Both the position numbers and the translations under genes were made by a program. Below, in pieces: positions 1 through 11,514 of a stretch of DNA of 11,514 bases. The notes beneath the pieces were generated by a model. The model worked only from the letters and a program-made list of their open reading frames with translations. It was not told where the DNA came from and made no database searches. Each line of letters opens with the position of its first letter. Position 1 is the stretch's first letter. The DNA lies in contig JBDRYB010000040.1 in NCBI GenBank assembly GCA_039803205.1, forward strand, positions 1 through 11,514, written 5' to 3'. This DNA comes from a candidate division WOR-3 bacterium (GTDB lineage Bacteria > Hydrothermota > Hydrothermia > JBDRYB01).

Positions 1-10
1 GAGAATGAGA

Positions 11-27
11 TGTCAATGATCTTGACA
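11..27. promoter_or_regulatory. Inverted repeat TGTCAA-N5-TTGACA (back-to-back -35 hexamers or operator)
   Basis: tgtcaa (11-16) and ttgaca (22-27) are perfect reverse complements. Each half reads as a consensus -35 on its own strand. Confidence 0.5.
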
Positions 28-51
28 ACATGGGGTATAATTTGTTATGCT
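22..51 (+). promoter_or_regulatory. Putative sigma70 promoter for the 209-463 gene
   Basis: Perfect -35 TTGACA (22-27), 18-bp spacer, -10 TATGCT (46-51) preceded by extended-10 TG at 43-44. AT-rich context. Confidence 0.55.
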
Positions 52-208
52 TTGCGCCTTTATATGAAAGAACACAGCCCAATCCTCCTCAAAGGCCTCG
101 TGAGAACAACAGGGGCCAGGGAATACGGTCTGAGGTGGAGAAGGGTTGTTCTCATACTTGAGAAGGCTACTGTGAGAAGAAAGGTAAACAGAACAAGGAG
201 AAACAAAC

Positions 209-463
209 ATGATGTGGGCTCATCCGTGCAAAGATGATGTTGAGCTCCTCTTAGCTTGTGGGAAGGGTCCTGTTCTGGTGAGATATCTCAAGGCCTGGGC
301 CTTAGGGAAGGGCTGGAGCAGGACAAAGTTCTACAGGAAGCTGGCCAGGCTCAGGAAATACGGGTGGATAATCCAGAAAGAGGCAGTGGTTTGGGTCAGC
401 AAATTGGGAATAAAGGTCATCAGGGCTTGGGAAAAAGCGAGAGCCAACAAATTGGGTTCTTAA
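209..463 (+). CDS. Small basic winged helix-turn-helix DNA-binding protein (MarR/ArsR/PadR-like fold)
   Basis: RBS AAGGAG at 195-200, 8 nt before ATG. Recognition-helix/wing pattern WSRTKFYRKLARLRKYGWII..EAVVWVSKLGIKVI resembles S..T..R.L..L...G.I.....y.lT..G of wHTH proteins. Confidence 0.65.
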   Translation: MMWAHPCKDDVELLLACGKGPVLVRYLKAWALGKGWSRTKFYRKLARLRKYGWIIQKEAVVWVSKLGIKVIRAWEKARANKLGS

Positions 464-475
464 GGAGTCTATCTG

Positions 476-799
476 ATGAGGATAGCGCCAGCTGGAAGAG
501 CCAGACCATCATGGTCCTATCCGATAAAAATATCCGACGAAACGAGAACACGGGGGGCAGAACCCAACAAACCCCTCGCTTGCCGTGATTCCCTGGGAAC
601 CTGGTCAAGGGGAAAGAGGTTCCTGATAACAGAGGACGGAAGGGAGGCCTTACTGATGAGAAAGAGGTGGCTGAAGAATAATGGGAATTGGCATGTTTTC
701 AGTGAAAATTCAGCTCCTCTTAGTTTGCCCCTTGATATTCCACGCGTTTTCATGTATAAAATAGATGTGCATGCACAACTAAAAGAAGGAGGTTTTTGA
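476..799 (+). CDS. 107-aa hypothetical protein: 30 unique residues plus the tail shared with B2 (orphan tail module or remnant)
   Basis: RBS TAAGGAG at 461-467. From NKPLACR onward it is identical to the B2 C-terminus except one V/L change. It overlaps the internal promoter, so coding status is uncertain. Confidence 0.4.
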   Translation: MRIAPAGRARPSWSYPIKISDETRTRGAEPNKPLACRDSLGTWSRGKRFLITEDGREALLMRKRWLKNNGNWHVFSENSAPLSLPLDIPRVFMYKIDVHAQLKEGGF

Positions 800-833
800 A
801 CCATGATCGGGATTGTTTTGTTTCTGCTTTCGG
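566..833 (+). repeat. Junction block J1, copy 1 (tail peptide + promoter + RBS + start of A gene)
   Basis: Direct repeat of 7619-7886 (offset 7053), with 2 mismatches before the ATG and 2 in the first codons. 788-910 also closely matches 4151-4273. Confidence 0.97.
732..760 (+). promoter_or_regulatory. Putative sigma70 promoter upstream of A1
   Basis: TTGATA (732-737), 17 bp, TATAAA (755-760), then RBS AAGGAGGT (786-793). Box positions and 17-bp spacing are kept in the diverged copy at 4104-4132. Confidence 0.7.
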
Positions 834-2233
834 TTCAGCCAGGAAAGCCATGGGACTATACCCCTCTCTCCCCCAGGGATACTTCCTGGAATGTTGAGCT
901 AGTTGGATGGGTGGATGGGGTGGGGGAGGTGGAAGCCCTCGCGGCATCAGAGGACGGGAGGGTGGTTTACGCGAGTGCAGGGGATACTCCGTGGAGGGAC
1001 AGCTTGGTTATCGTGGACATCTCGGATCCAGCGAATCCTTATATCTACAAGAGGATAGGGCACGATAAGCTGGGTTGCGATGTAGTTACTGTCATAGACA
1101 CCTTTCTCTATGTGCAATGGTGGGGGCCCTCCCGAGTTTGGATCTCTGAGCTCTGGGTTATGGACATCAGGGATCCCCTGAATCCTCAGCTTGTTAACAT
1201 AGCTTACCACTATGAGAGTAACGCCAAAGACTCCCTTGAGTGGTGGGGATGGGATGGCCGCGTTTACCGTCATCCTTCTAAAGATACAATTTTCTATGCT
1301 TTTGGATGGCTGAAATCCTTCAGTATAAGTGATCCACTGAACCCAAAGCTGATAGGCGCCTTAGCGATCAGTACTGGAATCCAATCTGTCTCATGGCCGT
1401 ATGCCTTTATACTCTTGGGTGGTGTTCCTCACTCCTACTGGGAAATCTATGACCTCTCCGACCCCTCTCATATGTTCCTTGTTCACAGGGACTCTGTATA
1501 TGAGCCATATGAGTGGCCCAAATGCATAGCCGCGTGGGAATATAACGGAAAGAGGTATGTTTATATCCACGGAGGGGCAAGCTACGACTACTCCTATGAT
1601 GTGACAGATCCGACAAATCCGAGGCTTGTGCACTGGGGGCACAGGGAGAGGGGAGCCATATCTTTGGTTCATGGGCTAAGGGGTTATGGAGGATATTATG
1701 GTTTTGCTGTATTTGACCTCACTGACCCCTATTATATTCCCGTGATTGCGGAGTATCCTATTGAACCTCCCCTCACATACATAACCCATCCCTATCTGTG
1801 GGCTAACGGCTATGTTGTTACGAGAGCGGGTATTTATGGAGGCAACCACGGCCTCGCCATCTTCCACTACATCTACGACACTATCCCAGAAGACACATCA
1901 GACACCACAGAGCATTACCTTGAATGGGTCAGGACAATCTACACCGGGCCTGAGCTCAGCTTTTCAATCTCTCAACAAGCTCATGTTTCCTTCACTCTCT
2001 TTAACATCTCAGGCCAGAAAGCCCATGAGAGAGACCTCGGAACATTAGCTCCTGGCCCTCACACAATATCCCTACCTGGCCTTAAGCCAGGGGTCTATTT
2101 CCTCCATCTCAGGATAAACAACAAGCTCATAGAGAAGAAGATCATCTTCACACAGGAAGGGGGTTTTTACCGGGATGACAATCCCATAAAACCAGCAAAC
2201 AAAGGCTCAAAAGAAACCAAGAGGAGGTTGTAA
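803..2233 (+). CDS. A1: LVIVD-repeat beta-propeller protein with C-terminal T9SS/Por-type sorting domain
   Basis: Six repeats such as LVIVDISDPANP, LWVMDIRDPLNP, YSYDVTDPTNP. Acidic linker DTIPEDTSDTT. Sorting-domain motifs FTLFNISGQK..LKPGVYFLHL..KKII. Short hydrophobic N-terminus and strong RBS. Confidence 0.88.
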   Translation: MIGIVLFLLSVQPGKPWDYTPLSPRDTSWNVELVGWVDGVGEVEALAASEDGRVVYASAGDTPWRDSLVIVDISDPANPYIYKRIGHDKLGCDVVTVIDTFLYVQWWGPSRVWISELWVMDIRDPLNPQLVNIAYHYESNAKDSLEWWGWDGRVYRHPSKDTIFYAFGWLKSFSISDPLNPKLIGALAISTGIQSVSWPYAFILLGGVPHSYWEIYDLSDPSHMFLVHRDSVYEPYEWPKCIAAWEYNGKRYVYIHGGASYDYSYDVTDPTNPRLVHWGHRERGAISLVHGLRGYGGYYGFAVFDLTDPYYIPVIAEYPIEPPLTYITHPYLWANGYVVTRAGIYGGNHGLAIFHYIYDTIPEDTSDTTEHYLEWVRTIYTGPELSFSISQQAHVSFTLFNISGQKAHERDLGTLAPGPHTISLPGLKPGVYFLHLRINNKLIEKKIIFTQEGGFYRDDNPIKPANKGSKETKRRL

Positions 2234-2241
2234 ACCATGAA
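1854..2241 (+). repeat. Junction block J2, copy 1 (A linker + sorting domain + RBS + first codons of B)
   Basis: 388-bp direct repeat of 5244-5631 (offset 3390), 19 mismatches by manual count, no indels. Confidence 0.97.
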
Positions 2242-4162
2242 GAGGATATGCAAGACCATAGTGGCCATCGTGGCCACGGCTGGGATGTGTCTGGGATTCT
2301 ACGGCCAGCCATTCGGGGTGAACCCTGCTGGGTTCAACTACTTCAGAGACTTCCCTCATCCTAATGTGAAGACCCTCTGGCAGGACCTTACTCCTGGGCC
2401 TGAGGAGGCCTATATCTGGCACGGGAAACCAGGGGATTGGGGATTGGGGACGCGCCTTACCTGGGCAGACCTCTACCTCCCAAGATATGCGGTTGGCTTT
2501 GATGATTGGGGTGGTGGACCTCCAGCCTGGTGGGAATATGACTGGAACAAGCCCAAACCAGGATATTGGTTTCCACCATACTGGCTTTATTGTGATTCCC
2601 TCGTTGAAACCGCGAGGAAGCTCAAGCAAAACGGAAGGAAACCAGTTTGTGTTCTCTTTAGCTGGGATATGCCCAAGTTCCTGCCCGATTGGTCAAAGGG
2701 ACCCCCATATCCAGCCAGGTATGTCTCACCTTGTCCATTTGGGTGGAATGAAGCTTTTCCCGTTTCTCCGCCCCACGGGGTTCAGATAAGGGTCTACACC
2801 GACTTTGATGGTGAAGTGCCCCCTGAGTATTACATGGCTACATTTGATGACGATGTCCTTGATACTGTCTTCCACTGGGCTTTGGCTGAGAAAGCTTTGG
2901 GGGAAGGGATGAGCGAGGGCTGGCTCATCAACCCGTATACCCAAACAGAGGAATACAACCGGTGGAAAACCGACATGAGGGAGATGGCACGGGAGCTAAA
3001 AAGGGCAGGGGCTGAGGGGAACATAGACTACTTCATCATAGGATGGCTTGGAGCACCCGCGGACTGGTATTACAGGGTATTTTGCTGGGAACCGCCTTTG
3101 GAGATACCAGGTTATCCTAATAGGGCTGACTCCATCGTTCTCTGCGGAAAGGGGGCTCCAGAATCTCAAGGCGGTTATGGTCCCCCCATATTCATAGAAA
3201 ACCCCGACGCCACCTGGGCCATAAACGAGATGCACTGGAGAGGGTTTGATCCTGTGGACCCCCCAGGAGAACAACATGTTCGGTTCTGGACTAGGATAGT
3301 GCTCCTGCCTGATACGAGCATAGACACCATACCTTCCCCATCGGATACCGTAGCGGTTGTGGTGGTTCACCTCTGGGCCGTGAATTACTGGAAGCCAAAA
3401 CCAGATGAGCCGCCGAACTCAGCCGCGCCCCCCAGCATAAGCGACACCTTTGTCCTGGTTGTCAGCTCTGAGTTCCGGGACTGGGTTGTCTCAACAACAA
3501 ACCCCAAGTGGAAATACGAATGGTATCTCAAACCCCTGCTTGAGATACTCCAGGATGAACTTCCTGGTGTAAAGAGGGTTGTATGGCTCGGGGAGCAGAA
3601 CGCTGGGTATCACGGGGGATGCATGCCGGAACCGGGAGGGAATAGGCCGTATTGGCCCGGCGTGCAGAGATGGCACCTGTTCTACGGGTGGCTCAGGGAT
3701 AATGGGATAGATGGTTATCCTGGATGCTGGTTTTGGGGGGATAGCATGAGATCGCACTGGATGCTCGATTATCCAGGGCATTCGTGGCCAGACCCCACGG
3801 GCATCCTTGACCACGCCTCTCAGCTTTTAATCCAGACAGGCGGAGCCTCTCTCATAGACGGCATATCCTTCAACCTCTACATCTGCCACTGGGTAGAAAA
3901 CTGGAACCCGAACGACCCAGAATCGGACCCCTACAAGCGTATAGGCCCTGACATGGAGCAGATAGCCGCCTTCAATGACTCCCTGGGAGGGAAGGAGATA
4001 CTTCTGAGGGAAATCATCCCTCCAATTGCCGGAAAATCCCGGGATGAGAAAGAGGCTGTTTCTCATGTTTTAAATGAAAATTCAGCCCCTCTCATATTGT
4101 TCCTTGATAGTCCACGTGTTTCCGGTTATAAGCTTATTAGCGCGCTAAGAGGAGGTTTTTGA
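2237..4162 (+). CDS. B1: secreted GH-A-like TIM-barrel protein, C-terminally truncated and fused to a degenerate J1 tail
   Basis: Signal peptide MKRICKTIVAIVATAGMCLG. Motifs PFGVN, LTWADL, DSLVETARKLKQNGRKPVCVL, WLGEQN, DGISFNLY, KEILLRE. Clear paralogue of B2 and B3 but lacks their segment after ITE(L/M)G. Confidence 0.7.
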   Translation: MKRICKTIVAIVATAGMCLGFYGQPFGVNPAGFNYFRDFPHPNVKTLWQDLTPGPEEAYIWHGKPGDWGLGTRLTWADLYLPRYAVGFDDWGGGPPAWWEYDWNKPKPGYWFPPYWLYCDSLVETARKLKQNGRKPVCVLFSWDMPKFLPDWSKGPPYPARYVSPCPFGWNEAFPVSPPHGVQIRVYTDFDGEVPPEYYMATFDDDVLDTVFHWALAEKALGEGMSEGWLINPYTQTEEYNRWKTDMREMARELKRAGAEGNIDYFIIGWLGAPADWYYRVFCWEPPLEIPGYPNRADSIVLCGKGAPESQGGYGPPIFIENPDATWAINEMHWRGFDPVDPPGEQHVRFWTRIVLLPDTSIDTIPSPSDTVAVVVVHLWAVNYWKPKPDEPPNSAAPPSISDTFVLVVSSEFRDWVVSTTNPKWKYEWYLKPLLEILQDELPGVKRVVWLGEQNAGYHGGCMPEPGGNRPYWPGVQRWHLFYGWLRDNGIDGYPGCWFWGDSMRSHWMLDYPGHSWPDPTGILDHASQLLIQTGGASLIDGISFNLYICHWVENWNPNDPESDPYKRIGPDMEQIAAFNDSLGGKEILLREIIPPIAGKSRDEKEAVSHVLNENSAPLILFLDSPRVSGYKLISALRGGF

Positions 4163-4273
4163 ACCATGATCGGGATTGCATTGTTTCTGCTTTCGGTTCA
4201 GCCAGGAAAGCCATGGGGCTATACCCCTCTCTCCCCCGAGGATGCCTCCTGGAATGTTGAGCTCGTGGGATGG
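4043..4273 (+). repeat. Junction block J1, degenerate copy, continuing into the conserved A1/A2 5' end
   Basis: gatgagaaagagg (4043-4055 = 655-667). catgtttt..tgaaaattcagc.cctct, cttgata.tccacg and ggaggtttttgaaccatgatcgggattg align with copy 1. High identity to A1 continues to ggatgg at 4273. Confidence 0.9.
4104..4132 (+). promoter_or_regulatory. Putative sigma70 promoter upstream of A2, inside the B1 coding tail
   Basis: TTGATA (4104-4109), 17 bp, TATAAG (4127-4132). RBS GAGGAGGT follows. Confidence 0.62.
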
Positions 4274-5623
4274 CTTGATTCAGTGGGAGTGGAAATAGGG
4301 AGTATGGTGGCCCATGAGAACGGTAAGGTGGTCTATATGAGCGTGAGAATGAGCGGGGACACCAGCGCCATATTGGTTTTGGACATCTCGGATCCGACCA
4401 ATCCTTACATCTATAAAGAAATACGCAACGATAGCCTCCGCAGAGCAGGAATAGCTGGCAGAACTGGAAATTACCTTCATGTGTGGTGGAGAGATTACTT
4501 TGGCCCCAACAAATTTGTGTATGTGTGGGATGCTTATGACATCTCAGACCCCCTTGAGCCGGTGTATGTGAAAACGATCTGGACATATGTAGGTGGATGG
4601 GAAAAACAGCCGGGGAACATGTTCTGGGGTGGTGGCTGGGTCCGCGACACCATCCTTTACGGAAAGGACGAATACAAGGCTTTTAACATAACCGACCCAT
4701 TAAACCCTATTCTGCTTGGTAGTGTAAATGCTGGTGGTGGTTATTGCTCCACTTTCTTTTATCCTTATGCTTACTCTGCTCACCCCCGTGATACAAGCGG
4801 ATTCTTCTTTTTTGAGATAGTTGACATCTCCGACCCCACAAACATGTTCCTGGTTAAAACTGATACCCTCTGGGCCCCTTTTGCTCAATATCCCATGGCA
4901 ATTGGCGCTTGGCAAAGCCCGGAGGGCAGAATTTATGTTTATATGGCTGGTCTCAGCGGCTACGCGTGGAGCCTTGATGTGACTGACCCACATCACCCCG
5001 TAGTTCTCCATTGGGGCATGAGGGACGAACAGATAGTCTATGGAGGAATAACCCGGGGGAGCAGGTTCTATGGCTTTGGTTATGAGAATAATCTGGTAGT
5101 CTATTCCCTTGAAGACCCCTACTGGGTTCCAGTGATAGGGAGATACCGGTGCGATTCTATAGACTATACTGACGGGGGCACCTGGGCTAACGGATACATA
5201 GTGGCCAAAGGGAGACCTTATCCATTTGATACATTTGATCTCATCGCCATCTTCCACTACATTGGGGACACTATCCCAGAGGACACATCAGACACCACAG
5301 AGCATTACCTTGAATGGGTCAGGACAATCTACACCGGGCCTGAGCTCAGCTTTTCGATCTCTCAACAAGCTCGTGTCTCATTCAGCTTGTTCAACATCTC
5401 AGGCCAGAAAGCCTATGAGAGAGACCTCGGAACATTAGCCCCTGGCCCTCACACAATATCCCTACCTGGCCTAAAGCCAGGGGTCTATTTCCTCCATCTC
5501 AGGATAAACAACAAGCTCATAGAGAAGAAGATCATCTTCACACAGGAAGGGGGTTTTTACCGGGATGACAATCCTATAAGACCAGCAAACAAAGGCTCAA
5601 AAGAAACCAAGAGGAGGTTGTAA
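4166..5623 (+). CDS. A2: LVIVD-repeat beta-propeller protein with C-terminal T9SS/Por-type sorting domain
   Basis: Repeats ILVLDISDPTNP, AYDISDPLEP, FNITDPLNP, FEIVDISDPTN, WSLDVTDPHHP, LVVYSLEDPY. C-terminal ~125 aa almost identical to A1. Confidence 0.88.
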   Translation: MIGIALFLLSVQPGKPWGYTPLSPEDASWNVELVGWLDSVGVEIGSMVAHENGKVVYMSVRMSGDTSAILVLDISDPTNPYIYKEIRNDSLRRAGIAGRTGNYLHVWWRDYFGPNKFVYVWDAYDISDPLEPVYVKTIWTYVGGWEKQPGNMFWGGGWVRDTILYGKDEYKAFNITDPLNPILLGSVNAGGGYCSTFFYPYAYSAHPRDTSGFFFFEIVDISDPTNMFLVKTDTLWAPFAQYPMAIGAWQSPEGRIYVYMAGLSGYAWSLDVTDPHHPVVLHWGMRDEQIVYGGITRGSRFYGFGYENNLVVYSLEDPYWVPVIGRYRCDSIDYTDGGTWANGYIVAKGRPYPFDTFDLIAIFHYIGDTIPEDTSDTTEHYLEWVRTIYTGPELSFSISQQARVSFSLFNISGQKAYERDLGTLAPGPHTISLPGLKPGVYFLHLRINNKLIEKKIIFTQEGGFYRDDNPIRPANKGSKETKRRL

Positions 5624-5631
5624 ACCATGAA
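5244..5631 (+). repeat. Junction block J2, copy 2
   Basis: Direct repeat of 1854-2241. Confidence 0.97.
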
Positions 5632-7852
5632 AGAGGTGCTAATACTTGCCCTGCTCGTGGTTCCAGCCACGAGCGCTGAGCACATATACGGAATGACGGC
5701 TCAAGGAGCTAACTACCTGCCAGGAGAAGGCTGGGATCCATACCTTGAGCAGATATACATGGGCCTGAACATGGGACCTGTTGTAGTAGGGGCATCCGAT
5801 GGGAGCAGAGTCGGGGATGAAATGTTCTATTGGTGTCACTTCTATATCCCACTAGGGGCATTTCACTATGACGGCCTATGGCACATGCCTGAACATGTTG
5901 CTCGGATTGTTGACCAGTCCCGTAGGATAAAGGATATGGGGAGAGGCCCCATCATTTGGCGGTTCGGAACCGTATTCCCTCAGTTTGTTCCTTCGGGAAG
6001 CGGATTGGTGTGTCCGGGCATAGATGACAGCATCTTCAGCTGGGACGAGGCCTTTCCTGAGGATAAGTCTCCACCTCCTCCACATCATGAGGATAGCGTT
6101 GAGATCCTCATATATAATGGCGACCCACACAATCTCTCAAGATACACCGACAAGCTCCCAAACAACACCCTGGACACGGTGATGAAGTGGGCCATGAACG
6201 GGGTCCTTGGAGTAGGTGTTTATGGAGGAAGCTCCTTATATCCTGAAGGACACCAGCCAGAAGGACTACCCTCCCTAGATGAGCTACTCTACGCTGACAT
6301 GTCTTGGGCTTTTGAGTATCTTAAGCAGATAGAGGGCCACGAGGTTATAGATTACATCTATATAGGCGAGGGAGGGACTGAGCCGCTGATGGGCCCATGG
6401 AACTTCTGGAGGGCATTTGTGTTGAATCCGCCTTTGCCTGACGAAAACCCTGAGGATTCTATTATACCTCCCGATTCAATAGTTTTGCTCGGCAGGGGCA
6501 CAGGATATGATTATAAAGCACTTGGTTATGGCGATTTAGAAAACAACGACTGTCCCTTTGCCATAGGCCCCCTCCACTGGGCAATGGAGACCCGCCACGG
6601 CCCACAGGGCAAATATCTGATGTGGTGGGCAAGGGTTACACTCCTGCATGAGGACATCCCCCAGGACTACACCACGACCATAAAGGTCTCTATCTGGGCA
6701 GTTGACAGGATAAGACAATACGAAGATGCATGTGCAGTAGGAAATGCCCTAGGGCCTGAGGACCCCCCTTCTCTTGAGATGACCTTCAACCTGAGAGTAG
6801 ATCCAGATTACATAAACCGGGTGAAAGAGATAGCGTCTCCAAAGTGGTGGGGCCAGCACTACTATGCTCCTATCCTCAGAGCCGCAGAAGATCACCTTTC
6901 CGGAACAGATGTGAAGATGCTGGTCTTCATCGGGGAGATGAACAATGGGGTCAGGGGGAGACAGCCTAACCCCCTGCGGTTCCGGGAGTGGATGGGTCCA
7001 GAATATTACGGTTGGGCCGGCAATCTGAGAACTCCTGATACCGTGCCACCGGAATTTAAGGCCCTTCTCAACGACGCTGACAGCCTCCTGGCAGGCATTG
7101 CCCTGGCCGGGGTTGATCCCGATGTGGCTGTTGATGGCTATGGCATCCACCTCTATGTTCATTCTTACTCCTGGGACACTGTTCCGGAGTGGATGCCCTA
7201 CGCTACCCTGCCTGACATCCTGGACACCCTTATACTCAGCAAAGGAACCGGGGATCACTCTCCTTACTATGGCCAGAAGGACATCTTTATCACGGAGCTG
7301 GGAGCCGCGATTGACACCGGAGGGTATGTGAATTTGGACTGTCAGGGTGCTCTCTGCTGTATATACAACCAGCCGCCAGTCCAGGCCAGGGTCATGGTTC
7401 AGAGCTATGACAGCTACAGGCATTACAGGGAGAAATATGAAAACACCCACAGATTCAAGCTCAAGGGGCTCCTCTGGTTCACCTATGGGACATGGGACAT
7501 TAACTTTTCTGTTGCCCAGAAATACCCATATGAAACTGCCGGACCTGAGGAGCCATATTGGCCTCTTCCCGCTTACTACACTCACAATCTCTACGCGGAG
7601 ACTTACGGAAACCCCTCGAACAAACCCCTCGCTTGCCGTGATTCCCTGGGAACCTGGTCAAGGGGAAAGAGGTTTCTGATAACAGAGGACGGAAGGGAGG
7701 CCTTACTGATGAGAAAGAGGTGGCTGAAGAATAATGGGAATTGGCATGTTTTCAGTGAAAATTCAGCTCCTCTTAGTTTGCCCCTTGATATTCCACGCCT
7801 TTTCATGTATAAAATAGATGTGCATGCACAACTAAAAGAAGGAGGTTTTTGA
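5627..7852 (+). CDS. B2: secreted GH-A-like (GH5/GH39-type) TIM-barrel protein with an inserted domain and J1-encoded tail
   Basis: Signal peptide MKEVLILALLVVPATSA. Motifs DGYGIHLY (beta6), KDIFITELG (beta7 nucleophile), QARVMVQSY (alpha7), LKGLLWF (beta8), WPLPAYY (terminal KPAY-like motif). The only B gene that looks intact. Confidence 0.72.
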   Translation: MKEVLILALLVVPATSAEHIYGMTAQGANYLPGEGWDPYLEQIYMGLNMGPVVVGASDGSRVGDEMFYWCHFYIPLGAFHYDGLWHMPEHVARIVDQSRRIKDMGRGPIIWRFGTVFPQFVPSGSGLVCPGIDDSIFSWDEAFPEDKSPPPPHHEDSVEILIYNGDPHNLSRYTDKLPNNTLDTVMKWAMNGVLGVGVYGGSSLYPEGHQPEGLPSLDELLYADMSWAFEYLKQIEGHEVIDYIYIGEGGTEPLMGPWNFWRAFVLNPPLPDENPEDSIIPPDSIVLLGRGTGYDYKALGYGDLENNDCPFAIGPLHWAMETRHGPQGKYLMWWARVTLLHEDIPQDYTTTIKVSIWAVDRIRQYEDACAVGNALGPEDPPSLEMTFNLRVDPDYINRVKEIASPKWWGQHYYAPILRAAEDHLSGTDVKMLVFIGEMNNGVRGRQPNPLRFREWMGPEYYGWAGNLRTPDTVPPEFKALLNDADSLLAGIALAGVDPDVAVDGYGIHLYVHSYSWDTVPEWMPYATLPDILDTLILSKGTGDHSPYYGQKDIFITELGAAIDTGGYVNLDCQGALCCIYNQPPVQARVMVQSYDSYRHYREKYENTHRFKLKGLLWFTYGTWDINFSVAQKYPYETAGPEEPYWPLPAYYTHNLYAETYGNPSNKPLACRDSLGTWSRGKRFLITEDGREALLMRKRWLKNNGNWHVFSENSAPLSLPLDIPRLFMYKIDVHAQLKEGGF

Positions 7853-7886
7853 ACCATGATCGGGATTGCATTGTTTCTGCTTTCGG
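7619..7886 (+). repeat. Junction block J1, copy 2
   Basis: Near-identical to 566-833. Identity starts abruptly at aacaaacccctcg and ends after ctgctttcgg. Confidence 0.97.
7785..7813 (+). promoter_or_regulatory. Putative sigma70 promoter upstream of A3, inside the B2 coding tail
   Basis: TTGATA (7785-7790), 17 bp, TATAAA (7808-7813). Same boxes as 732-760. Confidence 0.7.
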
Positions 7887-9184
7887 CGGAGCCGGGGGAG
7901 GCCTATGTCCCATTCGGGATTGACTCCATGAACATGAGGATGGTGGGATATCTGGTGGATACATCTAGAAACGGCTTTTGGCGCTTGGCCGTAACAGAGG
8001 ACATGAACTACGCGTATACCTACGATGCTTATCTCGTTATCATAGACATGCGGGACAAGGAAAACCCAAGGATAGCCAGAGTGATAGACAGCATAAAACC
8101 TTGGGCGCTTCTGGTAAAGGATACCCTGCTGTTCTTGATCTGGAACCATTTCACTATTTGCGACATCTCAGACCCCCTGAACCCGGTTCCAATAGGTCAC
8201 TGCGACTCCGTTTACGGAAGGGAGGACCTGATATACCTTGAGGGTCTAAATAGGGTTTGTATAGCCGATTGGAAGGTCACGATAATAGATGTCTCTAACC
8301 CCACATCTCCCAAGCCAACATGCACTGTCACGCTCGGTGGAACAGTGCCCCAGGCCTGCTATGTTCCCCCTTACCTCTATGTTATCAAGTCCGATACCCC
8401 GTATTCTCACGCCTACATCTTTGAGCTCAAGGTGAACCCGGATTCCCTCAAACTCCTCAACAGGATTGACCATTGGACCCCTAATAACTGGGATTATGGC
8501 ACCCGGACCATAGCGGCCTGGAAGGACGATTCCTCCGGGAGGACCTACCTCTACTGCCTAGGGGGCACAGTGTGCTATGTCTTTGACGTGACTGATCCCC
8601 TGGACCCCATTACGGTGAATTATGGCAAGATGGACCCAACTTGCAACCTGTCCAGGGTGGATGGCCACCTTCTTTATTCAAGGTCAGGGTGGTTAGGCCA
8701 ACATAAAGACGGAATAACCATTTGCGATCCCAAAATGGACCCTGCGTTTTTCCCGATAGTTGGGTTTTACAGGTGGTCAGAATTAGGAGGCGAGTTCTGG
8801 GACATCTGGGACTTAAGGCCAAAAAACGGATGGATTTTCGTATCAGCGACCCTTCACAATTTCAGAGACGAGATGGTGGGGGCAAGCTTCGGTATCTTCT
8901 ACACTCCCCTGGGCGCTCCGGGCACCTCCATCTGTATCCCTGAGACTTTCAGGGTCGTCGTCACTTACCCAGGGCCGAGGCTTTGCCTTACGCTATATTC
9001 CAAGTCAAACGTGTCCCTCAGCCTCTACGATGCTGGGGGTCGTCTGGCAATCAGGAAGGACCTGGGCAGGCTAAACCCAGGAAGCCACGCTATCCCCTTG
9101 GGCCACAATCTCGCTCAGGGGGTCTATTTCCTTCAGGTGAATATAAACGAAAAGAGGTTCTTAGAGAAGGTGGTGATAAAATGA
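7856..9184 (+). CDS. A3: LVIVD-repeat beta-propeller protein with canonical T9SS/Por-type C-terminal domain
   Basis: Repeats LVIIDMRDKENP, FTICDISDPLNP, VTIIDVSNPTSP, YVFDVTDPLDP. C-terminus LSLYDAGGRL..LAQGVYFLQV..EKVVIK-stop. Confidence 0.88.
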   Translation: MIGIALFLLSAEPGEAYVPFGIDSMNMRMVGYLVDTSRNGFWRLAVTEDMNYAYTYDAYLVIIDMRDKENPRIARVIDSIKPWALLVKDTLLFLIWNHFTICDISDPLNPVPIGHCDSVYGREDLIYLEGLNRVCIADWKVTIIDVSNPTSPKPTCTVTLGGTVPQACYVPPYLYVIKSDTPYSHAYIFELKVNPDSLKLLNRIDHWTPNNWDYGTRTIAAWKDDSSGRTYLYCLGGTVCYVFDVTDPLDPITVNYGKMDPTCNLSRVDGHLLYSRSGWLGQHKDGITICDPKMDPAFFPIVGFYRWSELGGEFWDIWDLRPKNGWIFVSATLHNFRDEMVGASFGIFYTPLGAPGTSICIPETFRVVVTYPGPRLCLTLYSKSNVSLSLYDAGGRLAIRKDLGRLNPGSHAIPLGHNLAQGVYFLQVNINEKRFLEKVVIK

Positions 9185-11215
9185 AAAGGACAGCCATAGG
9201 CATAGGACTGATGATGGTGAGCCCTCTTGGAGCGCAGAAAGACCCCCTCTACGGGGTCACGGAGGCTCGTGATACATACTGGACTGACAGCGTAGGGTTT
9301 GGTCTAACAGGAATAGTTAGGCATTGGGACGGACTCTATGGGCCTCCTGAAGTTGAGATTCCTCAGGAGGGCCTGATCTTTGACCCAATGCCAAGGGTGC
9401 TAGAGGATGGTCAAAAGGCAAAGAATATGAAGGACAGAGGCCTCTCAGTTGAGTGGAGATTCTGCCTGGGAGCGGTTCCTGTGATATACTCACCCCAAGA
9501 ACAGAGAAGCATAGACGAGACCTCCATGCCATTCGGATACGACCAGGTTTATCCAAACCCTCAGTATTTTGATGGGGAGTCAGTTTCCATCATCCTTCAT
9601 GTGTGTAAGGACAGCCCCTGGCAGGATAGACCAGAGTATAAGTATTCCATACTAGATTATCAATGTCCACAATGATGTCATAGATACAGTTGCCAGGTGG
9701 GCCATGGAGGGGGTCCTTGCAGCTTGGGCCTGGCCCCACAAGTGCGTGTATGAGATGTATTCTCCGGGCGGAGAGGCTCACGATACCATCTGGGAGAATG
9801 ACATCCCGGGCATAATTCAGGCCCTGAAACAGCCTGTTCCTGGCGGCGGCCCTGTTTATGAATACATGGACTACATGACCATATTCGGAGCGCCGAGCGG
9901 GTCTGGGTATAGCTTCTGGTGGGTTTTCGCAAAGGAGCGGGATCGGGAAGATACCGTCAACTTTGAGGAAGGCCTTGTAACCGGAAACCTCCATTACCGT
10001 TTCTGTCCCTGGCACGGTAAAGATGGGGAGAATAACAACTACACATACCCACATGTAGGTATCTGGTGGCAAGCTATGGTAATCGTGGAGCCCGATAGGG
10101 ATCACATTAGCTATGACGATGACTGCCAGGCCTGGGTCAGGTTTGAATTCTATGCGAGAACATCCTATGACCACCTGTATAATGCCTGGGCGGGTTTTGT
10201 TCACGCGTGGACATGGGAGGAAATCAAGAAAATCAAAGAGGAGGATCCCTTGTTCCAGCCCAGTTTCGTGGTAACCGTTCACCTCAGTGTAGAACCATCC
10301 TTCCGAGACTGGGTCAGGGATGTGCTGTGGGACCCAGCTTGGGGTGCCAGGGTATATCATATTCCCCTTGCCAGAGCCATTCAGCAAGACCCTGAACTCA
10401 CGGACGAGATAAAGGTAATGCGCATGGGTGGGGAGATGAACTGCTTGTGGCCTCTAGGCGGGGAGGAATATCCACATGGTCAGGGCACATTTCCCTATTG
10501 GCTCGGGCATGGTCAAGATGAAGGTGAAGCTGGCCTCAAAAAGATGTTCTTCGGTGGCGCTTTTAGCAACGATGACCCGCACAACATGGACAGGCTGGAC
10601 AAACAGATCCTAGAAATGCAAGTGAGGGCCTTGGATCAAAATCCAGAGCTCGTGAGCTATCTTGATGGCTATACCTATAACCTCTATGTCCACACGCTTC
10701 CATGTATTAATTGTGAGAATAACCACCCTCCCATGCCTTACGATACCTTTTACACTATGATGGCAGACATCCATGCCATACACGGGCCTGGCGGGGATTA
10801 TCCAGGTGAGGTTCTCATCACAGAGATGGGCGTTGTTGCTGATCCGAGAAACCCGGTTGAAATGGCAAACAAGGCCACGCTTGTAGTCCATCACTATGAT
10901 GTGATTGAGAGGGCGAGGGAGGAAATACCAAATTTTCCGGTGGTCTCCGGAATTTACTATGCCTTTGATGGGGGTGACTGGAACCTCTTTCTGAGGCTTC
11001 CTAATGGAGATGGAGAGTGGTGCCCCACACCAGCGGTATACGCCTATCAACTCCATGCTTACACCTACAACTATAACAGTCCTACCATGTCGTATCCAAA
11101 CAAACCCCTCGCTTGCCGAGATTCCCTGGGAACATGGTCAAGGGGAAAGAGGTTCCTGATAACGCGAATATTTGCATCCTGCCGAGGGTCAGCTTTAACA
11201 TTCATGATGAGGTGA
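9181..11215 (+). pseudogene. B3: secreted GH-A-like protein split by a +1 frameshift near 9656-9672 (pseudogene or sequencing error)
   Basis: Start at 9181 overlaps the A3 stop (ATGA) and encodes signal peptide MKRTAIGIGLMMVSPLGA. That frame stops at 9675. The next frame from 9656 reads IINVHNDVIDTVARWAMEGVL, matching B2 PNNTLDTVMKWAMNGVL. Later motifs are GGEMN, DGYTYNLY, VLITEMG, CPTPAVY. Confidence 0.8.
11099..11163 (+). repeat. 65-bp core of J1, copy 3
   Basis: Matches 566-630 with 2 mismatches, then diverges abruptly. Confidence 0.95.
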
Positions 11216-11218
11216 AAA

Positions 11219-11514
11219 ATGCTCATGTTGATCCTTTGGGCTCTGCCTTTCCTTCCTGAGAAGGGGGAAGGCTCGGTTTTTAGCTGGAACACTGGCTCCG
11301 GCTACACCCCTTTCAGCACCATAGACACGGCCTGGAATGTTGAACTCCTTGCTACCTGGGATGATGGCAGGAATTATGTTGGGGGCATAGGGGTCGCAAC
11401 TTATCAGAACTATGTATACTTATCGCAAGCGACAATAGGAGGCTCGGGGGAAGGAATAACCATTCTGGCTCTTTACGACTCCCTGGGAAAGACGGTCATC
11501 AGAAAGGTGGGCAG
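11219..11514 (+). CDS. A4 (partial, runs off the window): fourth A-family propeller protein, absent from the supplied ORF track
   Basis: RBS GAGGTGA at 11209-11215. Open frame MLMLILWALPFLPEKGEG..GYTPFSTIDTAWNVELLATWDD..YVYLSQ matches A1/A2 YTPLSP.D.SWNVELVGW.D. Confidence 0.8.
   Translation, partial: MLMLILWALPFLPEKGEGSVFSWNTGSGYTPFSTIDTAWNVELLATWDDGRNYVGGIGVATYQNYVYLSQATIGGSGEGITILALYDSLGKTVIRKVG

Follow-up and report, generated by a model that had tools for sequence, protein, structure and literature searches.

The 11,514-nucleotide stretch analysed here, referred to as the window, is the entire contig JBDRYB010000040.1 (C40) from the genome of a candidate division WOR-3 bacterium (assembly GCA_039803205.1; 2.3 Mb in 50 contigs, hereafter G000). 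Seven genes follow one another on the same strand in the order A-B-A-B-A-B-A, predicted secreted propellers (A) alternating with glycosidase-like proteins (B). This order and the coordinates agree with the original prediction made for this DNA. Two kinds of repeat lie between the genes, here named 'leftover + spacer' (the B-to-A repeat) and 'C block' (the A-to-B repeat). Proteins of the relatives are labelled WOR-3 or Candidatus Hydrothermia by their sources, and the sequencing runs containing window DNA are hot-spring metagenomes. By comparison with these relatives, B1, B2 and B3 are front ends only of a longer protein.

In the relatives, full-length B measures at least 1,600 amino acids (aa) and comprises a barrel resembling glycoside hydrolase (GH) clan A, followed by an extended C-terminal part with a type IX sorting domain at its end. 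The C-terminal part of ~900-1,000 aa and the sorting domain are missing from every B of the window. A complete example is the 1,609-aa protein P0018: its front is 46% identical to B2 over 683 aa and is followed by ~900 residues, then by a FlgD_ig/Por_Secre_tail end scoring over the cut-off. B1 is cut within the barrel: its homology to the full-length protein of the related genome G002 ends at 4012, just past the Glu that is the putative nucleophile, with ~90 residues of the barrel still to come. B2 retains the complete barrel and inserted beta domain (5627-7618). The units had been proposed to be complete secreted pairs that keep their sorting domain; this is not supported, as no B in the window has such a domain, B1 ends before its barrel is complete and B3 carries a frameshift. 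The shared blocks had also been proposed to preserve the signal peptide; those of the B genes lie outside the blocks.

What remains of the constant part, which starts with NKPLA, differs from unit to unit. B1 keeps none of its codons, B2 keeps 38 (7619 to about 7732) and B3 keeps 22, while a fourth leftover stands alone at 560-685. The latter is 90.8% identical to the middle of the G002 B gene over 566-685, and 88% identical to the related locus L027 over 560-676. At both places the start of the B-to-A repeat sits in the middle of an open reading frame (ORF), with ~1,020 residues still to come in G002. Five copies of 22 shared codons could be compared: nine out of ten variable positions are third codon positions, and nine out of ten variable codons are silent. 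Because the leftovers vary almost only at silent sites, they look as if they were coding until recently. Cores of the B2, B3, G002 and L027 types all end in these same 22 codons, B2 and B3 having 25-38% aa identity to the others. The cut genes of the window thus stand in a row and have part of their constant region in common with a full-length gene, the full-length forms coming from relatives and not from G000.

Similar cuts recur elsewhere. P0016 is 97.5% identical to P0018 over 557 aa, then stops just behind the strand where B1 stops; judged by this identity, one B front end exists both full-length (P0018) and cut (P0016). P0002, P0011 and P0003 are cut between RE and II, at the same point as B1, and their frames continue into the same spacer; the front of P0002 is 46% identical to B1 and that of P0003 61%. 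An exhaustive B profile search returned 10 proteins, with P0018 as a cluster member of one of them. The B profile matches 3 of 272 genomes of the phylum, all from one genus. With P0018, 38 of 64 genomes of the class match, and among the matches listed those from outside the genus cover the C-terminal region only. Word-based protein searches gave no longer forms of B (one returned B2 only), and scans of the genome-contig collection gave no relatives.

Table 1 Features of the window, positions counted from its first letter.
Feature	Position	Strand	Remarks
Left flank	1..489		97.8% identical to G000:C39:1485-1973; first 127 bases identical
84-aa ORF, no Pfam match	209-463		inside the left flank
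Remnant 0: leftover of the constant-part start without a B front end	560..685	+	within ORF 476-799
Spacer: promoter-like site and ribosome binding site	686..802	+	copies at ~4064-4165 (diverged) and 7739-7855 (98.5%)
A1: LVIVD-repeat propeller between a short signal peptide and a type IX-like sorting domain	803..2233	+	
N block of A1	788..910	+	92.7% to 4151-4273
C block: A sorting domain, tail and B start	1854..2241	+	95.1% to 5244-5631
B1: front end only, then 49 read-through codons	2237..4162	+	
A2: A1-like ends, old different propeller core	4166..5623	+	
B2: front end, 38 constant-part codons, 39 read-through codons	5627..7852	+	
A3: own sorting domain; only first ~10 codons common with A1/A2	7856..9184	+	
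B3: pseudogene in two frames	9181..11215	+	22 constant-part codons (11099-11164), 16 read-through codons
A4: start of a fourth A gene, another subtype	11219..11514	+	runs off the contig

The repeats themselves bear the marks of recent exchange. A1 and A2 had been described as nearly identical at both ends around strongly diverged cores, which is confirmed: 788-910 and 4151-4273 share 92.7% of their letters and 1854-2241 and 5244-5631 share 95.1%, and the cores are down to 37% protein and 49% DNA identity. Fourfold-degenerate sites differ at 2 of 18 positions in the N block, 6 of 51 in the C block and 33 of 52 in the core. Silent sites are mostly shared in the blocks and mostly different in the core, as anticipated (8/69 versus 33/52, Fisher p = 2e-9). 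With silent sites homogenised in this way, protein constraint alone is insufficient to explain the identity of the blocks, and a recent exchange of DNA between those of A1 and A2 is supported. A further pair of segments, 566-833 and 7619-7886, is 98.5% identical; A3 lacks the shared C block (36% aa identity). The core of A1 is closer to A genes of other species (56-68% aa) than to A2 (37%), and its sorting domain is 95% like that of A2 and 73-76% like the three closest others. By these comparisons the A genes are mosaics. The proposal that the blocks act as recombination arms stands as far as recent exchange of DNA goes, given the silent sites, but the B-to-A repeat encodes protein in its 5' part, which is not a dedicated arm. 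The claim that the B genes end in one shared sequence also needs correcting: B1 ends in a diverged spacer copy instead of sequence of the 566-630 type, and B3 keeps only 68 bp of the latter.

All 7 junctions are tight, the stop codon lying 3 bases ahead of the next ATG or overlapping it as ATGA. The read-through stops of B1 and B3 both fall 3 bases before the next A gene (A2 and A4). The read-through tails are stop-free in the B frame, with a chance put at 0.057, 0.061 and 0.39 by base shuffles. These values, and the relatedness of the first two tails, make the support for coupling modest. By eye, a promoter-like site TTGATA-17-TATAA is present in three spacers and was not listed by the promoter scan. 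The promoter and terminator scan returned 9 promoter-like sites versus 12.5 expected, none in the spacers, and an Rfam scan of the window gave a single chance match below the gathering score.

B has no Pfam match, and a PDB sequence search with it came back empty. The predicted structure of B2, compared with clan A hydrolases, aligns over the whole barrel, at best with Z 14.1 and a root mean square deviation of 4.2 over 280 residues at ~10% identity. The top 50 structure matches are all clan A-type hydrolases or their homologues (Z 12.1-14.1). The best Foldseek match is a GH1 enzyme (E 4e-3). A language model gives B the neighbours GH53, Glyco_hydro_cc and GH5 (0.92-0.93), its recognition value staying below the mark set by the tool. 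The earlier assignment of B to glycosidase-type barrels is upheld by this match of the predicted structure to clan A (beta/alpha)8 barrels. We take the catalytic residues of clan A to be an acid/base Glu after strand 4, within an NE motif, and a nucleophile Glu ending strand 7. With strands numbered on the B2 model, a Glu at the end of putative strand 7 is kept in all 10 rows covering the column, and a GExN motif one strand after putative strand 4 is kept in 8 of 9. B resembles the clan A families GH5, GH10, GH53, GH1, GH39 and GH51 in its barrel and strand-7 Glu; it differs from them in its inserted beta domain of ~130 residues, in the mostly missing canonical strand-4 motif and in the conserved GExN on the next strand. 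On the basis of this model, glycosidase activity of B is plausible.

A1-A3 are composed of LVIVD repeats followed by a weak Por_Secre_tail match (E 0.002 in A1). The A genes open at 803-840, 4166-4200 and 7856-7890 with very short hydrophobic signal peptides devoid of basic residues; the B genes start with MK. Among type IX substrate features, the sorting domain of P0018 is over the cut-off, those of A1-A3 are under the curated cut-off and the B genes of the window have none. In G000 as a whole, a custom iterated profile run on 2,061 ORFs detects a sorting-domain-like C-terminus in 137-216 proteins, and SprA_N and PorV score above cut-off, other type IX parts lying outside the search. Given these proteins, a type IX-like export route in G000 is plausible.

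A gene of A1 type precedes B1-type sequence in both G000 and G002, and in G001, another related genome, and two further records A is fused to the inserted domain of B. This gives a hint that A works together with the front of B, with the reservation that the fusions and pairings may share a single origin. In the fused genes (L025:723-2759 in G001:C25, P0029 and P0040), A is joined behind its sorting domain to the region of the inserted beta domain, and the barrel is absent. The predicted complex of the B2 barrel with the A2 propeller scored 0.05 in a run without controls, and counts neither way.

Population data came from four of the five listed runs (X1 to X4), a single study available as contigs only. 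Three segments each lie on a single X1 contig with 0 differences: 2212-4179, which takes in B1 with its cut and the first part of A2, 5602-7602 and 7857-11126. These contigs rule out an assembly chimera within the cores and show that the cut of B1 and the A3-B3 unit are genuine; they leave the order of units across the repeats unproven. The frameshift of B3, near 9660-9670, is also present in X1 and X2 contigs; X3 has instead an internal 1.3 kb loss in B3. On an X1 contig A4 extends 1,189 letters further.

X2 and X4 have a contig on which a B2-like end, reaching 7616, is directly followed by 11097 and A4. This joining contig has the base of the third copy just ahead of the shared stretch, and in X4 it shows 3 differences in 128 letters; for these reasons another B allele in the slot before A4 is more likely than a clean deletion. 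In X3 unrelated sequence stands after 924 and before 7598, and the 30 letters shown of these joints can be read as another A core and another B end. Different cores do occupy the same slot, as the original prediction supposed, at 924 and 7598 in X3 and before A4 in X2 and X4, all within one study. Depth at both window ends is ~1.5-2x that of the cores in X1 and X2, a measure that is not a copy number and that hints at mixed arrays; core depths in X1 are even (25-31).

A comparable array lies on contig C39. It reads A'-B'-A'-B', with FG-GAP propellers, a first B' of 938 aa that lacks a sorting domain and a second of 1,378+ aa. The first 40 codons of the A' genes are 95% identical in DNA, and their cores mostly 51-66%. 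This row occupies G000:C39:2572-13080, and its second B' runs off the contig into sequence reached by C31 behind a transposase remnant. As the first 127 bases of C40 are identical with C39, the contig start is a branch of the assembly graph. Some 420 bases to the left of the shared flank C39 carries a large serine recombinase gene, and C40 leaves its path right after this gene and the 84-aa ORF. A recombinase outside the window had been among the things to look for; one is there, and nothing ties it to the blocks. G001 and G002 carry A and B genes, and no such recombinase was found in their assemblies. The C39 and C40 arrays may represent two islands that have their left end in common, or else alternative alleles at a single locus.

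Cut genes also occur at other loci. A 728-aa gene on C13 comes to its stop within a stretch that matches the long genes of C25 and G002:C162 at 91-93% identity, and another propeller gene follows. In L027 the cut is placed some ten codons further along this same stretch, ahead of FN3 lipoprotein-like and SprT-like genes. There, in a single frame (L027:1629-2855), the end of the B barrel and its leftover continue into a module known otherwise from the C25-type long gene, from which it follows that constant parts of different long genes are shuffled as well. The orphan layout of the A and B genes is absent at 12 other loci with long sorting-domain proteins (9 of them from other families, 3 from G002). 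Further long secreted genes (G000:C13:42617-48376, C11:52326-55123, C43:1-5069 and C25:23275-27018) share middle or C-terminal modules behind differing fronts, among them lipase-like (AHSMGG) and HEMGH metallopeptidase-like ones, and some are cut or split.

A second A-A-B' family (L038:2-4342 in G002:C20, L037 and L041) stands before infC in G001 and G002; its B' is 872 aa long, with a canonical WNEP and no sorting-domain match. In G001 an A gene follows thrS; thrS and infC are adjacent in G000. The latter genome holds pieces of this family at C12:38210-39571, C28:2-1804 and C47:1-1005, with one A right after rplP (internal stop) and a B' upstream of rplE. Two unrelated regions of G000 were noted by eye: C23 (30 kb, 44% GC) encodes terminase-like and portal-like proteins and very long ORFs and has the look of a prophage or foreign element, and C36:131-6420 holds three tandem dynamin-like GTPase genes adjoining a cas cluster.

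We now propose, with moderate confidence, that the locus consists of orphan cassettes left by N-terminal displacement through homologous recombination, a mirror image of Rhs arrays in which, as in KLIKK/potempin pairs, the partner gene lies upstream. The working pair would be a secreted propeller A and a long B with a variable glycosidase-like domain at its N-terminus, placed there because a type IX sorting domain must be C-terminal. Incoming or rearranged DNA made of spacer-promoter, A, B front and start of the constant part would recombine, in a RecA-type reaction, into the constant-part start of the resident B. The new front end would thereby join the constant part and its sorting domain, and the old A-B front would be shunted upstream with a short, variable leftover. 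Leftovers would also allow an orphan to be re-attached to the constant part, or to be deleted. Orphan B proteins could not be exported by type IX and would decay, as B3 may have done. Their frames run to a stop beside the next A start, which would probably keep the A genes expressed.

In the sections used here, Jackson et al. (PMC2935791) attribute strings of rhs genes to homologous recombination, which moves the former C-terminal tip downstream together with a piece of the core whose length varies. The unequal leftovers of the window (none, 38 and 22 codons) are what this displacement model predicts, as far as those sections set it out. Re-attachment of an orphan is reported by Koskiniemi et al. 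(PMC3967940), and Zhang et al. (PMC3482391) connect the order of toxin first and immunity second with exchanges at the 3' tip, both sources being cited here in part. If the polarity is mirrored, the variable part and its partner are found on the 5' side and orphans accumulate upstream, each with a leftover as its 3' end, which matches the window. Arrays of Rhs, CDI and MafB genes resemble it, in the portions of the literature cited, by their adjacent incomplete genes, old distinct variable domains, constant leftovers of variable length, one small partner per unit and recombination in the constant part, proposed or shown. They differ in that here the variable domain is N-terminal, the partner is upstream and the orphans lie upstream of the presumed intact gene; moreover, orphans here retain the start, signal peptide and promoter-like site and lose the export tag. 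The definition of polymorphic toxins in the cited part of PMC3482391 (C-terminal variable domain, toxin followed by immunity) does not fit the window, whose variable domain is N-terminal and whose partner comes first. Because of this misfit, and with toxicity no more than a possibility, we liken the window to an Rhs-type orphan array and do not file it as a polymorphic toxin member.

Closer in orientation are the KLIKK/potempin pairs of Tannerella forsythia. According to the passages drawn on (PMC9890683, PMC4404884), these are tandems of a small upstream gene and a type IX enzyme with an N-terminal catalytic domain; the upstream stop overlaps the enzyme start or lies <=5 bases from it, and paralogues share near-identical DNA blocks. 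In the window, too, a small gene is directly upstream of, and coupled to, a gene for a type IX-secreted type of enzyme. On the other hand KLIKK genes are complete, each with its sorting domain, and the same passages mention neither orphans nor swapping. As described there, potempins are lipoproteins of 98-132 aa; A, a propeller, measures ~450 aa and has a sorting domain of its own, and B is glycosidase-like and not a peptidase with a KLIKK end. The reverse lipase toxin TslA of Staphylococcus aureus and its TilA immunity genes, in the excerpted account (PMC10730906), likewise combine an N-terminal enzyme, a C-terminal export part and upstream partner genes shuffled by recombination; the same account places them in type VII secretion, with arrays of immunity genes and not of cut enzyme fronts. 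The locus had not been recognised as a described system. No matching array was found, but its logic would be that of the described rhs displacement model, mirrored. A mirrored orphan array was not met with in the literature searched, which was main texts only; the supplementary gene neighbourhoods of PMC3482391 could hold reversed cases.

Several observations weigh against displacement. Above all, G000 contains no full-length B with this constant part (residues 298-665 of the G002 B are unmatched) and the contig ends inside A4. The expression site is therefore inferred, which is the main gap in the proposal; we infer the recombination route, the full-length B behind A4 and expression alike. 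B1, P0002 and P0003 may be one old truncated gene since diverged, and P0016, P0018, P0002 and P0003 are known from protein records alone, without DNA context. The frames of B1 and B2 are still open over a long distance, as would be expected if the short proteins were under selection. Strict pairing is weakened by the C block, which lies between A and B and could separate one from the other. As for the enzyme, the strand-4 acid/base motif is present as WNEP in the distant G002:C20 protein and possibly as the GEGGTEP of B2, with no Glu in 7 of 9 rows, and the B2 model is of middling quality (12 sequences, predicted local distance difference test (pLDDT) 54.7, predicted template modelling score 0.64; with 4 sequences, pLDDT 29). 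Finally, X1 is possibly the source sample.

As to function, B may act on a surface or extracellular glycan with A as its dedicated partner, most likely an inhibitor or chaperone; this is the least certain part of the proposal, to which we give slightly less than an even chance. The target of B may be a competitor's envelope or food. It is conceivable, if rather doubtful, that matters go further and that this WOR-3 genus has a type IX-exported polymorphic attack system of reversed polarity. Interchangeable N-terminal hydrolases would be swapped onto constant stalks, each upstream propeller would neutralise its own hydrolase, and displaced pairs would be a bank of spare parts and immunity translated by a read-through relay. 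The fronts would then be a new clan A-like glycosidase family here, and propeller, SprT-like and lipase-like ones at the sister loci.

The displacement proposal has to be set against an ordinary tandem paralogue cluster, which we find unlikely. It would consist of old A-B duplicates with gene-converted ends, the B genes having been shortened by deletion to decaying or periplasmic single-domain enzymes, with no exchange at an expression site. Gene conversion alone accounts for the silent-site pattern, and the genome is rich in repeated secreted paralogues (the 137-216 sorting-domain proteins) and insertion-sequence scraps. The B1-type cut in three other records could go back to a single ancestral deletion, and the missing full-length partner also speaks for it. 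What such a cluster does not predict is that all three B genes lost the same part, with the cuts clustered at the constant-part start and a lone leftover at 560-685, that a front end exists full-length and cut at 97.5% identity, or that other cores sit at the same blocks.

It is quite improbable that every unit is a working secreted propeller/glycosidase pair whose modules are swapped by dedicated arms. In favour of this are the genuine, mosaic blocks, a promoter-like site in each unit and the complete B2 barrel; against it stand the absence of a sorting domain from the B genes of the window, the missing last barrel strand of B1, the frameshift of B3 and an arm that is coding sequence. An assembly artefact, strains of a mixed population chained through repeats, is more improbable still. 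It draws on the graph branch common with C39 at the contig start, the end depth of ~1.5-2x the cores (X1, X2), the alternative joints and a longest exact repeat match of 123 bases, close to the 127-base contig overlaps. It is countered by zero-difference contigs that bridge B1-A2 and A3 to the leftover of B3, by truncation and A-B-A adjacency that do not depend on the repeats, and by the even core depths in X1 (25-31).

Integron attC sites consist of an AAC...GTT repeat forming a bottom-strand hairpin. Homology in the 65-base element of the window starts with AAC and a GTT follows ~55 bases on, an attC-like spacing reminiscent of the short boundary repeats of integron cassette arrays, and a resolvase + recombinase gene lies left of the shared flank. 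An integron reading, prompted by AAC...GTT and by an apparent position-4 match between R boxes, was rejected, the changes being silent codon changes. No IntI was found over cut-off in G000 or at E<=1e-30 in 41 genomes (drafts, with no positive control), the bottom strands fold no better than shuffles (z 0.18-0.36), and the repeat, unlike that of integrons, is protein-coding. A site-specific system, with the element as an attC or as target of the neighbouring large serine recombinase, is hardly credible: relatives have the element in the middle of an ORF, its variation falls at third codon positions, the units are not all cut at the same point and no such recombinase was found in the assemblies of G001 and G002, which do have A and B genes.

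In the parts of the reviews cited above, polymorphic arrays have variable C-terminal tips with the partner gene behind. A C-terminal export tag, as in type IX, should yield the mirror-image array, and the locus looks like that case. The biology of WOR-3 bacteria is little known: in a phylum-wide paper (PMC12542636) the main text, the portion covered here, contains none of the strings 'secret', 'peptidase', 'recombin' and 'integron'. The window adds a thermophile glycosidase-like family that has no Pfam or PDB sequence match and an atypical putative active site, as well as a testable role for LVIVD propellers as enzyme partners. It also gives a search template for phyla bearing type IX: a small gene followed by a cut front whose last piece comes from the middle of a longer paralogue.

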